Assembly: GCF_055900595.2 (NCBI RefSeq) | Contig: NZ_CM148325.1 | Length of the DNA: 64,000 bases | Reading direction: 5' to 3' (one strand) | In this document: one piece after another, positions 8,817-13,059 of the stretch | Numbering within the stretch: position 1 is the first letter of the stretch | Layout: each line of letters opens with the position of its first letter | The notes under the pieces: model-generated | Database searches by the model: none | What the model saw: only the letters and a program-made list of their open reading frames with translations | Told to the model about the DNA's origin: nothing | Made by a program: the position numbers and the translations under genes

Positions 8817-9713
8817 ATGGCTGACTCAACGAGAAATCGCTCAGCGGAGCGTTTGATTGATATCCTTGTTGAATTACAGAATTATGGTGTGGTCAGTCGC
8901 CATAATTTGATGAAAAAATACAACATCACTGAGCGAACAGCATATCGTGATCTGAATATGCTTTCTCCCTTTATTGAAGCCTGTGGCGATGGAAAATACC
9001 GGCTTATTTCAGCAAGAGCAGGAAACCAGAGCAAAGAATCCCTGCACAAATCTCTGGCCAGGTTACTGGATACTGATGCGATTTTTCCTGAACGGGATGA
9101 AGGTTTCTGGCAGAAATTAGAAAACAGGGCAACCGAAAAGCATATTCGTGTTCAGTTTCATAACCCTGAGCACACTATCAGGGATGATTTAAGAAAATAT
9201 CTTGATGTTCTTGAAAAAGCGATCTGCAACAGTAATGTTTGTCAGATTGCATATGCCGGTAAGATCAGAATCGTTCATCCCTATAAATTAACTAATCAGA
9301 GAAGTATATGGTATTTGCTGGCTACTGAAGAGAACAAGTTAAAGTCGTTTTCATTAGCTAAAATAAAATGGCTGGATATAAAAAAAGAAAAGTTTGCAAA
9401 GAGTGATGAAATACAGTCACTAGTAAGTGAGTCATGTGACCCGTGGGTGAGCGACAAAACATTTGATGTTGTGTTGTTCATTCACAGTAATATCGCCCAT
9501 TATTTTTTGCGACGGGACTTACTTCCTTACCAGCAATTGCTACACAAACATGACAATGGCATTACGCTGTCATGCAAGGCTTCACATAAAAATCAAATTA
9601 TCCCGTTGATTTTATACTGGCTACCGAATGTTGAAATTATTGAACCAGTATGGCTGAAAGAAGTTATGTTAACAATGTTAGGAAAATACCTCACCGCTGA
9701 GAATGTTTCCTGA
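8817..9713 (+). CDS. WYL-domain transcriptional regulator (wHTH - WYL - C-terminal extension; BrxR/CapW-like architecture)
   Basis: N-terminal HTH (RLIDILVELQNYGVVSRHNLMKKYNITERTAYRDLNML) and a literal W-Y-L signature (QRSIWYLLATEENKLKSFSLAKIKWLDI) at about nt 9300-9380; ends 48 bp before the next gene. Confidence 0.75.
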   Translation: MADSTRNRSAERLIDILVELQNYGVVSRHNLMKKYNITERTAYRDLNMLSPFIEACGDGKYRLISARAGNQSKESLHKSLARLLDTDAIFPERDEGFWQKLENRATEKHIRVQFHNPEHTIRDDLRKYLDVLEKAICNSNVCQIAYAGKIRIVHPYKLTNQRSIWYLLATEENKLKSFSLAKIKWLDIKKEKFAKSDEIQSLVSESCDPWVSDKTFDVVLFIHSNIAHYFLRRDLLPYQQLLHKHDNGITLSCKASHKNQIIPLILYWLPNVEIIEPVWLKEVMLTMLGKYLTAENVS

Positions 9714-9761
9714 AATATTTCAGTTGACTGATGATAAAGCAATCTGTACAGGAGGAAAAGA

Positions 9762-10841
9762 ATGGCGTTACCTTTCATTATTTTGGGTGTGGCTGCCGGC
9801 GCTGCGGCATTCGGCGGAAAAAAAGCTTACGATGGATATCAAAAAAAGTCAGAAGCAGAGGATATCCTCGAAAAAGCAAAAGAGCGTTACGAGGAGCATA
9901 AAGGAAAATTTGAGCAGTCTGAAGCTCAGACATCATCAAAATTAACAACGCTCGGAAATAAAGAGCTTGAGATTGGTAAAGATTTCAGTGAGTTCGACAG
10001 GATTGCTGCTGAGCTCCTGGCGCGTCTGGAAAAAGAGGGCAATAAAGATCTGAAACTGAGTGTCCCGCAACATAACATCAATAAGATTCAGAACCTGGCC
10101 ATTTCAGCAACAGAATATCTCAGTACGGTCGTTGCTGCCGGAGTTTCCGGGGCAGCTGCAGGTTTTGCTGTGTATAGCGGAGTGATGGCATTTGCTGCGG
10201 CTTCCACAGGTACACCCATTGCAGCGCTTTCTGGTGCCGCGGCTTATAACGCGACGATGGCGGCAATTGGTGGGGGCTCACTGGCTGCAGGGGGCATGGG
10301 AATGGCTGGTGGCGCAATGGTATTAGGCACTGCAGTGGCTGCACCGTTGATTGCCATTGCGGGCTGGGCTTACGACAGACATGCGACGAAAGCTCTTGAA
10401 AATGCCCATCAGTGTGCCTGCGATGTTGAACGGGCAGTTAAGAAAATGAATCTGGCCCGGGAGCATTTTGCAAAAGTTAATCAATACGTTGATGAAATTC
10501 TCGCTGCACTGAACAGAATGCATGCTGTATTTATTAAACACTATTTTGAGCCGCTTAAATCCATGCATTCTGTTATTACAGCACAACAGGATATCAGTGT
10601 ATCAGATGAAGTCATTGTGCTTATTGACCATGGATATTCACTGGCCGCTATTATGACGGATATTATTACAACGCCACTGTTTAAACCGCGGAAACAGGAA
10701 AATGGTGAGGCAGTGATAAAAGATAACGTAATTGAAATGGAAACGGATGATAATGGAATGAATGTTATTAATAAGGAAGAGCTGGATGATGTACTGGCCA
10801 GTTCGGTTGTGAAATTTGATGATTTTTCATCCCGGAGTTAA
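9762..10841 (+). CDS. Membrane protein with N-terminal hydrophobic anchor, coiled-coil segment and long Gly/Ala-rich (glycine-zipper-like) hydrophobic region; function unknown
   Basis: 359-aa ORF preceded by strong RBS (ACAGGAGGAAAAGA-ATG); residues about 113-200 are almost entirely G/A/S/small hydrophobics (…AAGVSGAAAGFAVYSGVMAFAAASTG…GGMGMAGGAMVLGTAVAAP…); first gene of the operon downstream of the WYL regulator. Confidence 0.7.
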   Translation: MALPFIILGVAAGAAAFGGKKAYDGYQKKSEAEDILEKAKERYEEHKGKFEQSEAQTSSKLTTLGNKELEIGKDFSEFDRIAAELLARLEKEGNKDLKLSVPQHNINKIQNLAISATEYLSTVVAAGVSGAAAGFAVYSGVMAFAAASTGTPIAALSGAAAYNATMAAIGGGSLAAGGMGMAGGAMVLGTAVAAPLIAIAGWAYDRHATKALENAHQCACDVERAVKKMNLAREHFAKVNQYVDEILAALNRMHAVFIKHYFEPLKSMHSVITAQQDISVSDEVIVLIDHGYSLAAIMTDIITTPLFKPRKQENGEAVIKDNVIEMETDDNGMNVINKEELDDVLASSVVKFDDFSSRS

Positions 10842-10887
10842 TGATTTACCGGGCGTTTAAGCCCGGCTTTACAAGAAGTGAAATAAC

Positions 10888-12459: not shown

Positions 12460-12722
12460 AATTACACCCTCCATTTCCCTGTAACCAGTGTGGGGCCTGT
12501 TGTCGTCATGTCAACAGGGCGGGTGAAACGCAATGTCTGGATCGTGGTGACGGTATTTGCCGTCACTATCAGACTGATTCTCATTTGTGTGCAATTTATG
12601 ATAAACGCCCACAGATTTGCCGGGTTGAAGACCAGTATTTACTGAATTATCAGTCTCAGTACAGCTGGCAGGAGTTTATTGCATTAAACCAGGCCGCCTG
12701 CCTTATTCTGAATAAACTGTAA
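12456..12722 (+). CDS. YkgJ-family cysteine-cluster protein (putative zinc/iron-chelating domain)
   Basis: 88-aa ORF with CNQCGACC motif plus four more Cys; start codon overlaps the stop of the preceding gene (ATGA), indicating translational coupling. Confidence 0.7.
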   Translation: MKLHPPFPCNQCGACCRHVNRAGETQCLDRGDGICRHYQTDSHLCAIYDKRPQICRVEDQYLLNYQSQYSWQEFIALNQAACLILNKL

Positions 12723-12862
12723 TGCCATTAATGGCGGCGTCAGGACAGAAACTGAGAGAACATAAAACAGTAAAATGTCATTCCGTTCAGCAGCCAGCGT
12801 TGCTTTCTCCGGCTGCTGTTATTGTAAGGCATTTTCGTTAAGAACGCAGAAGGAGAGGATCG

Positions 12863-13059
12863 TGAGATTGCTGTTAAAAGGGCTCGTCGGAATGGCGCTG
12901 GTCTGGCTTGTTATTGGTTTCGGGATGGAGTTATTTTTTCTCGCCGATCGGGTTCATCCGGCATTAAGAGTAATCGTTGGCCTGGGGATGTTATTCCTGA
13001 TGATAATGATTGCGGGTGGTATGTGCGGTTCTCTTCTGTCACGAAAGAAAACATCATGA
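12863..13059 (+). CDS. Small hydrophobic membrane protein (about 65 aa, two predicted TM helices), GTG start after AGAAGGAGAGG
   Basis: ORF 12775-13059 trimmed to a GTG that follows a strong Shine-Dalgarno; product VRLLLKGLVGMALVWLVIGFGMELFFLADR…LGMLFLMIMIAGGMCGSLLSRKK. No family assignment. Confidence 0.4.

Follow-up and report, generated by a model that had tools for sequence, protein, structure and literature searches.

A mobile, WYL-headed gene cassette encoding a putative membrane-tethered HNH nuclease: a candidate immune module of a pheV island

The DNA analysed here, hereafter the window, is a stretch of 64,000 nucleotides from contig NZ_CM148325.1 of RefSeq assembly GCF_055900595.2. 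Its pheV island carries a cassette of four genes. The first encodes a WYL-domain regulator and is followed by g2, for a glycine-rich membrane protein, g3, for a putative membrane-tethered HNH nuclease, and g4, for a small cysteine-cluster protein. On balance we lean, if by a modest degree, towards regarding this cassette as a mobile immune module that is under WYL control and is directed at phages or other invading DNA. A defence role is supported by the conservation of the g2–g3–g4 triad across phyla, by its carriage on mobile elements, by defence genes among its neighbours and by the matches of g2 and g3 to models of phage defence candidates (PDC) in PADLOC.

Are the four open reading frames (ORFs) real genes? 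All lie on the + strand, at the coordinates given in the initial annotation: the HTH-WYL-WCX regulator (298 residues) at 8817-9713, g2 (359 residues) at 9762-10841, g3 (523 residues) at 10888-12459 and g4 (88 residues) at 12456-12722. The gap between the regulator gene and g2 is indeed 48 bp, and it contains a good ribosome-binding site, AGGAGG; the start of g4 overlaps the stop of g3, as had been described, by 4 nt (ATGA). Of 5426 complete E. coli genomes, 373 (~7%) contain the 4.4-kb segment, with 97-100% identity. Measured against a 97.4% identical E. coli variant, the ratio of nonsynonymous to synonymous substitution (dN/dS) is 0.33 for the WYL gene, 0.26 for g2, 0.08 for g3 and 0 for g4, which shows no nonsynonymous change whatever. 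Because so many genomes carry the segment and the dN/dS values are low, the ORFs are not products of chance. We conclude that the four are real genes under purifying selection, and that the description of the locus as a same-strand operon headed by a WYL gene was sound.

A fifth reading frame had been placed in the same operon. This small ORF of 65 residues, with two strongly hydrophobic helices, begins in RefSeq at a GTG at position 12862 and not at 12863 as first reported; it runs to 13059 on the + strand, with a dN/dS of 0.45. It has no counterpart in any cassette outside E. coli, those of Pseudomonas, Aeromonas and Vibrio included, and in other E. coli genomes (hit H76) its region occurs where the cassette is lacking. 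Since it is absent from those cassettes and occurs alone elsewhere, it lies outside the unit; probably it belongs with the phosphoethanolamine transferase region downstream.

What kind of protein is g3, the presumed effector? Its layout comprises an N-terminal domain resembling the HNH or His-Me finger (residues ~36-170), a long helical region and two to three hydrophobic segments within residues ~312-424. In an alignment of 106 homologues, reaching down to 28% identity with the window protein, T41, H111, N140, N149 and Y225 are invariant and D110, D121 and R124 nearly so; the resulting DH...N...N pattern is of the HNH type. The AlphaFold model of g3 has a mean pLDDT (predicted local distance difference test score) of 86, rising above 93 over residues 40-230. 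In this model D110-H111 close one strand, N140 opens another and N149 belongs to the helix that comes next, which resembles a beta-beta-alpha arrangement with an insertion of ~25 residues. The top three Foldseek hits of this model in the PDB were HNH domains of Cas9. The one recurrent Pfam signal in the family was GmrSD_C, found in 7 of the 106 homologues at E<=0.1 and in one at 1e-3. HNH proteins of the GmrSD/DUF1524 type share with g3 the DH...N...N-x2-K motif and the ~25 residues between two strands, but g3 lacks the DUF262 domain and its fusion to membrane segments is unlike GmrSD. The fold and profile signals are weak but agree in direction, and we consider it likely, but not proven, that g3 is an HNH-like nuclease.

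The initial annotation had described g3 as an HNH-like motif joined to C-terminal transmembrane helices. The invariance of the catalytic residues and the conservation across the family of the hydrophobic segments (~312-332, 366-391 and 392-424) speak for this description, although no HNH profile matched significantly. A scan by hydropathy only revealed no evident N-terminal signal peptide; because none is obvious, the nuclease domain is probably cytoplasmic. The same scan bears on a secreted toxin or bacteriocin, which we rejected on three grounds: g3 has no obvious signal peptide, no secretion-system gene lies beside the cassette in the loci examined and no immunity-type protein was found.

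In the databases g3 belongs to no significant family of Pfam, NCBIfam or PHROGs, and the same holds for g2; what these searches returned for both was sub-threshold noise, such as FtsW, RIFIN and BPD_transp_1. The g3 family is nonetheless large, numbering 855 clusters at 50% identity (E<=1e-3), of which 337 remain at E<=1e-30. Its members are mostly named ‘cobalamin adenosyltransferase’, and the homologues of g2 bear the name ‘chemotaxis protein’; neither name is backed by a Pfam or NCBIfam match to the family concerned. A search of the PDB by sequence, with profiles of g2 and g3 and the sequence of g4, gave nothing meaningful. Against the PADLOC models, on the other hand, g3 matched PDC-M40B at 4.6e-42 and all tested homologues matched it at 1e-29 to 1e-63, while g2 matched PDC-M09A at 5.4e-22 and all its tested homologues at 1e-16 to 1e-33.

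The g2 protein has a hydrophobic N-terminal segment and a Gly/Ala-rich hydrophobic core (residues ~119-206) with many invariant glycines, the family core being almost invariant as ASTGT..L.G.AA.NA..A..GGG....GG.G.AGG. AlphaFold2 models it as a long helical bundle whose Gly-rich tip is of low confidence. It had been called a glycine-zipper protein. No Gly-zipper family appeared among its Pfam matches even at E<=10, so that the term is only descriptive. Within PADLOC the g2 family also matches, weakly, the C-terminal stalk and membrane part of LeoBC/LeoA: at 7e-7 for a Pseudomonas homologue against LeoBC, and at 6e-6 and 7e-4 for others. The window protein itself matches LeoBC at a weak 0.014. 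Pfam detects no Dynamin_N or other GTPase domain in g2 or g3. The LeoA/LeoBC proteins (‘Dynamins’/Eleos) thus resemble the cassette through this weak match and through a dynamin-like GTPase beside one g3 homologue, described below, whereas g2 has no GTPase domain and the likeness may reflect a shared Gly-rich membrane hairpin only.

What might the third protein contribute? The cysteines of g4 are arranged as C9-x2-C12-x2-C15-C16 plus four more, and among 72 homologues the pattern FPCxxCGxCCR...C...C.IY..RP.ICR...C is invariant. Its match to the CxxCxxCC/YkgJ family PF03692 is borderline (1.1e-3), as is that to the NCBIfam YcgN family (1.3e-3), and its name in RefSeq is ‘YkgJ family cysteine cluster protein’. 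The motif, the profile and the name together bear out its initial assignment to the YkgJ type. In ~72 of 80 species loci (see below) g4 directly follows g3, and in most of them 4 or 1 nt are shared between the g3 stop and the g4 start, an arrangement that predicts translational coupling of the two. We presume that g4 is a metal or Fe-S cofactor subunit, or a regulator, of g3. In several RefSeq genomes with the identical sequence g4 was left unannotated, as in E. coli APEC O2-211 (L100:13757-14023).

How widely is the cassette conserved? We surveyed one genome per GTDB species (~100,000 species) and found a g3 relative encoded in 165. The composition of the cassette was scored in the best 80 of these 165 loci by searching all ORFs with local profiles of g2, g3, g4 and the WYL regulator. 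These best 80 loci span at least seven phyla, with representatives in the Proteobacteria, Desulfovibrio, Campylobacterota, Firmicutes, Spirochaetes, Bacteroidota and Gastranaerophilales, and ~72 of them have the complete g2+g3+g4 triad. The gene order is g2-g3-g4 in Proteobacteria and g3-g4-g2 in Firmicutes, Bacteroidota, Spirochaetes and Desulfovibrio; in either order g3 adjoins the g2 homologue in nearly all loci, and g4, where present, always comes straight after g3. At least 44 of the 80 loci encode a WYL protein no more than 4.5 kb from g3, and the shortness of many contigs makes this count a minimum. The pair g2+g3 occurs without g4 in Aeromonas phage D3 and in loci L012, L015, L062, L089 and L093. 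Since several lineages keep the pair without g4, the invariant core of the system is, on these gene contents, g2+g3, with g4 the usual third subunit and the WYL protein a frequent regulator. The four-gene order seen in the window therefore recurs across genomes in part: the triad is usual, but the WYL gene is found in about half of the loci and g4 is missing in some lineages.

Individual cassettes vary on this theme. That of Pseudomonas consists of the WYL gene and genes for proteins of 366, 540 and 89 residues, the last of the CxxCxxCC type. Vibrio has the Pseudomonas gene order with one extra gene, for 130 residues, between WYL and g2 (L008:6605-6997), and its cassettes have a PDDEXK_4 nuclease gene after g4; neither of these additional genes has a PADLOC match. 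An Aeromonas cassette has three genes and no WYL gene.

Is the cassette a system already known? The initial annotation could match it to no named system. None of its proteins matches a validated PADLOC system, and in this sense the statement stands, but relatives of two of them are already listed as the candidates PDC-M09A (g2) and PDC-M40B (g3), the only system matches obtained. The PDC entries are phage defence candidates found embedded in BREX, DISARM or type I restriction–modification systems and declared untested (10.1101/2024.01.29.577857). PDC-M09 has two genes and PDC-M40 three, and the cassette shares one component with each. They are two different candidates, and the scores indicate related subfamilies rather than the same family; moreover, no cassette protein matches PDC-M09B, PDC-M40A or PDC-M40C even at E<=10. 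Because the matches are split over two candidates and the other components are unmatched, the triad is not modelled in PADLOC-DB 2.0.0. Among known systems these two candidates stand nearest to the cassette, followed by Juk and by the HTH-WYL-WCX regulators.

If the cassette serves defence, what are its neighbours? In 20 taxonomically diverse loci we compared the nearest ORF of at least 150 residues on each side with PADLOC at E<=1e-5; one locus had a qualifying ORF on one side only. A defence or candidate gene was the immediate neighbour in 6-7 of the 20, a frequency that we would expect to be well above that for random genes, this expectation being set without a matched control. The neighbours include ZacB in Cupriavidus (1e-148), a type III restriction enzyme in Acetivibrio (1e-203), a GajB-like helicase (2e-103) together with PDC-M10A in Treponema, a DUF262/SspE-like protein in Clostridium and PDC-S01 in a locus of the Eubacteriales. 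In Gilliamella the cassette is followed, after g4, by JukA (5e-48). An nSTAND ATPase adjoins the Pseudomonas cassette, and a DUF262 gene lies near a copy on a Klebsiella IncFIB plasmid. The locus in the window had been described as lying in a typical defence-island context. The H-NS paralogue gene and the P4 integrase gene on which that description drew are present, but the immediate neighbours of the cassette there are not defence genes. Elsewhere in the pheV island of E. coli APEC O2-211, which the window matches, a gene for the S subunit of a type I restriction–modification system (L100:1-75) lies ~1.2-1.3 kb beyond the left end of the window, upstream of the sucrose genes; outside the window the island accordingly harbours one or more classical defence systems.

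A further property of the family is that g3 is found with different partners. The variant operon of Yersinia rohdei (L094:5549-11393) opens with a WYL gene, behind which come genes for a JukA homologue (4e-58), for a g3 relative and for a radical-SAM-like CxxxCxxC protein, and then a further ORF. The presence of an iron–sulfur-type protein at the position of g4 may be no coincidence. In Burkholderia arboris (L095:7779-10915) a g3 relative precedes JukA (1.5e-74); in both genera JukA is thus the partner instead of g2. On a small Rep3/Mob plasmid from metagenomes (L013:4882-9979 and L014), an 873-residue g3 homologue precedes an 819-residue dynamin-like GTPase with LeoBC/LeoA matches, which constitutes a third type of partner for g3. 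Since the swapping of partners is typical of immune systems, we count this exchange among g2, JukA and the dynamin-like GTPase in favour of immunity. Two simpler relationships among the partners found no support. Alignment of the g2 profile with two JukA proteins (hhalign probability <1%) gave no detectable sign that g2 is a diverged JukA, and hhalign was likewise negative for g2 as a fragment of the dynamin that adjoins the g3 homologue.

JukA is the sensor of the validated anti-jumbo-phage system Juk; it is drawn to the point of phage ejection and has been proposed to combine with variable effectors, and WYL genes and uncharacterised HNH proteins have been reported as frequent neighbours of jukA (10.1101/2022.09.17.508391). 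The cassette family resembles Juk in that relatives of g3 adjoin JukA under a WYL gene in Y. rohdei and B. arboris. The window, in contrast, contains neither JukA nor JukB, no window protein has a JukA match in PADLOC, and JukB is reported to be without nuclease features. The supplementary text of the Juk preprint mentions neither HNH nor Yersinia rohdei, and the supplements of DefensePredictor do not contain the accessions of the cassette. A literature search found nothing specific for PDC-M09 or PDC-M40, for the RefSeq accessions, for CxxCxxCC/YkgJ proteins in defence or for the combination of HNH, transmembrane segments and WYL.

How is the cassette likely to be controlled? The regulator has the Pfam domains WYL (1.6e-7, residues 128-184) and WCX (1.3e-6, residues 216-291), preceded by weak matches to HTH_11 (0.0019) and HTH_DeoR (0.013), both below the usual significance. 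It matches PADLOC WYL models at 9e-21 and 1e-19, one of which, PDLC01457, spans residues 9-277. A perfect dyad, CTGACA-N5-TGTCAG, lies at 8747-8763 (no strand assigned), 70 nt upstream of the WYL start; this element, located by sequence scan, is identical in the 97.4% E. coli variant, and similar dyads of the GACA-N5/7-TGTC type are found upstream of the WYL gene in cassettes from Stenotrophomonas (L048), from Vibrio (L008) and from Aeromonas (L046). We tentatively take it as a candidate operator for autoregulation, and presume that the WYL protein represses the operon or acts as its sensor. WYL/WCX regulators adjoining defence systems are documented (PMC9122601, PMC9122588, PMC11662680), CapW is reported to respond to a nucleic-acid signal (PMC11662680), and the DriD-type proteins are activators of a DNA-damage pathway that sense single-stranded DNA (PMC13004042). 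With BrxR, CapW and DriD the window protein shares the three-domain architecture, though its HTH part less surely, the place as first gene of a candidate immune operon and the upstream dyad; its similarity to solved members, however, is marginal and confined to the DriD type. At E<=10 a phmmer search of the PDB retrieved DriD-type chains only (7u02, 7tzv, 9cu3, 9pfq and 8tp8), the closest at E ~2e-3, and no structure of BrxR or CapW. The initial comparison with the BrxR/CapW type thus finds backing in the WYL and WCX domains and the position, not in detectable similarity.

Might the cassette, then, belong to a stress response and not to immunity? On this account a DriD-like WYL protein would induce, upon DNA damage or envelope stress, a membrane-associated nuclease and membrane-remodelling complex serving, for example, LeoABC/DynA-like vesicles or repair. 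That the solved relatives of the regulator are of the DriD type only is consistent with it, as are the weak matches of the g2 family to the C-terminal parts of LeoBC/LeoA, the dynamin-like GTPase adjoining one g3 homologue and the travelling of the E. coli cassette with pathogenicity-island genes such as pap. LeoA was originally reported as a factor associated with vesicles and encoded on a pathogenicity island of enterotoxigenic E. coli (PMC4159319). But the distribution of the cassette is sparse and mobile (165 of ~100,000 species; 7% of E. coli), and such patchiness is atypical of a pathway for stress responses; PADLOC itself counts the dynamin-like Leo system as defence; and the defence-gene neighbours and the pairing with JukA point to immunity. 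We regard a non-immune role of this kind as very improbable.

On what elements does the cassette travel? In the window the tRNA-Phe gene at 17814-17889 is pheV, with yqgA and speC adjoining, which vindicates the original placement in a pheV island. The E. coli copies, as a block that runs from the gene for the outer-membrane protein as far as the integrase gene, occupy three sites: pheV, pheU and, in a pap island, a position adjacent to glnH/dps. The Vibrio cassette sits at the edge of a tra gene cluster (a conjugative element or integrative conjugative element). The cassette is further present on 69 plasmid records, 23 of them conjugative, and many are Klebsiella plasmids. Its phage carriers are four Aeromonas jumbo phages of ~260 kb, D3, D6, D9 and LAh10, all of one genus, Ludhianavirus, and phages of this genus account for all 7 family-positive phage records among 50,697. 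What these phages carry is a g2+g3 pair, in phage D3 at L011/L016:4979-7575 (D3_0156 and D3_0157), with neither g4 nor a WYL gene.

These carriers raise the possibility that the cassette serves competition between elements: the membrane nuclease would mainly block conjugative or transforming DNA, as entry exclusion or an anti-plasmid function, or would arm its carrier, be it element or jumbo phage, against rivals, and would not give general anti-phage immunity. The position of the Vibrio cassette directly at the edge of the tra cluster, the plasmid records, the pair in the jumbo phages and the aptness of a membrane nuclease to meet DNA arriving by any route would all accord with this. Yet the neighbours of the cassette are classical anti-phage systems and not exclusion genes, and most copies lie in chromosomal islands with no transfer genes nearby. 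The proposal overlaps heavily with an immune role at large, from which it differs in the preferred target only, and as a separate account we find it unlikely, though to be taken seriously.

How might an immune module of this composition operate? We picture a complex at the inner membrane made up of g2, g3 and, as its metal or Fe-S subunit, g4. The WYL protein would hold expression low and would probably de-repress on a nucleic-acid ligand, such as single-stranded DNA arising from infection or DNA damage, a response modelled on the reports for CapW and DriD. The trigger would be a perturbation of the membrane or of the entry site sensed by g2, which in other lineages JukA or a dynamin-like GTPase would replace. 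Once triggered, the tethered HNH domain would cut DNA at or near the membrane. The most economical target would be the genome of an incoming phage or plasmid, cut where it enters the cell; global activation, on the other hand, would cut the host chromosome and amount to abortive infection. Because the nuclease would be anchored where DNA enters, because its alternative partner JukA acts at the ejection site, and because several lineages have the system without a WYL gene, which argues against extreme toxicity, we favour the direct interception of DNA, with abortive infection as a serious alternative.

Kiwa provides one precedent for this scheme: in KwaAB a membrane-embedded component works together with an effector that targets DNA close to where the phage enters. 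Zorya (ZorAB with ZorC, ZorD or ZorE) likewise combines a membrane component with a DNA-targeting effector near phage entry (PMC11890865), and its type II employs an HNH protein, ZorE. There is no homology between either system and the cassette, and in the cassette the nuclease is itself predicted to be membrane-anchored.

The alternative can be put in a stronger form, in which g2 and g3 would be toxins, damaging the membrane and degrading DNA, held in check by the WYL repressor, with g4 as a coupled inhibitor; the infected cell would be killed or arrested, and addiction would stabilise the island or plasmid. The presumed repressor at the head of the operon and the coupling predicted for g4 are compatible with such an arrangement. 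We consider this toxin version unlikely. The interception of DNA can also be extended. The g2-g3(-g4) systems might form a cross-phylum immune class in which an HNH nuclease built into the membrane destroys DNA at entry, g3 being the shared effector for g2, JukA and dynamin-like sensors and g4 a metal or redox control step unprecedented in defence. We put forward this wider proposal with some doubt, as a possibility less probable than the immune role on which it builds.

Several observations weigh against an immune role. For g3 there is no significant Pfam match (the best is GmrSD_C at 0.18), the Foldseek hits have E ~1, hhalign was negative for kinship to the GmrSD-like protein found as a neighbour, and the topology is uncertain, the segments being only moderately hydrophobic. 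We know of no role for g4, of the YkgJ/PF03692 family, in any defence system. The closest solved relatives of the regulator, the DriD proteins, control a DNA-damage response and not immunity. None of the other island genes in the window has a PADLOC match; 13-14 of the 20 loci have no defence gene as immediate neighbour, and the background rate comes without a matched control. Finally, our literature search found no published phenotype for the cassette, PDC-M09 or PDC-M40.

Two observations on the E. coli copies may be recorded here. In the chicken isolates E14, E15, E16 and E32 (hits H1-H4) the 4.4-kb match is split around an annotated IS1B, and this insertion in or beside the cassette possibly reflects inactivation in one clone. 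In all E. coli contexts inspected, namely pheV, pheU, the pap island and plasmid pRHB40-C01_2, the outer-membrane protein gene precedes the WYL gene.

The remaining features of the island surround the cassette as follows. A complete sucrose (scr-type) regulon, with genes for the kinase, a carbohydrate porin, the IIBC component of the phosphotransferase system, sucrose-6-phosphate hydrolase and a LacI-family repressor, occupies 13-6314 on the + strand; it is reminiscent of the tRNA-Phe-integrating element CTnscr94. The H-NS family paralogue follows at 6866-7340 on the - strand. It is frameshifted near its C-terminus, with the DNA-binding part in the other frame, and RefSeq annotates the frameshift and treats the gene as a pseudogene, as had been noticed at the outset. 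An outer-membrane beta-barrel protein of the Adr/OmpW-like kind (NCBIfam 2e-27) is encoded at 7659-8396 on the + strand. Beyond the small ORF lies the gene for a phosphoethanolamine transferase of the EptA/CptA/MCR superfamily (13125-14798, + strand), which is not an MCR allele, every curated cut-off being far above its score; the gene is truncated in E. coli strain 400625. Between it and the P4-type integrase gene (16447-17667) is a gene for a TPR-repeat protein of 347 residues (14942-15985, - strand).

What would an immune role mean? If validated, the cassette would be a defence system spread across many phyla, with copies in ~7% of the complete genomes of E. coli and on many plasmids of Klebsiella. 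Because g2 and g3 are mis-annotated and g4 is unannotated in some genomes, such a module would have been hidden from routine surveys of defence islands. It would be unusual in combining a membrane-anchored nuclease effector with an obligate partner weakly like the membrane-binding part of a bacterial dynamin and with a YkgJ subunit of the Fe-S/Zn type. Through the link to JukA, the cassette would offer a definite candidate for those variable nuclease effectors that the Juk preprint had proposed, and would give a second handle on how phage DNA is sensed at its site of entry.

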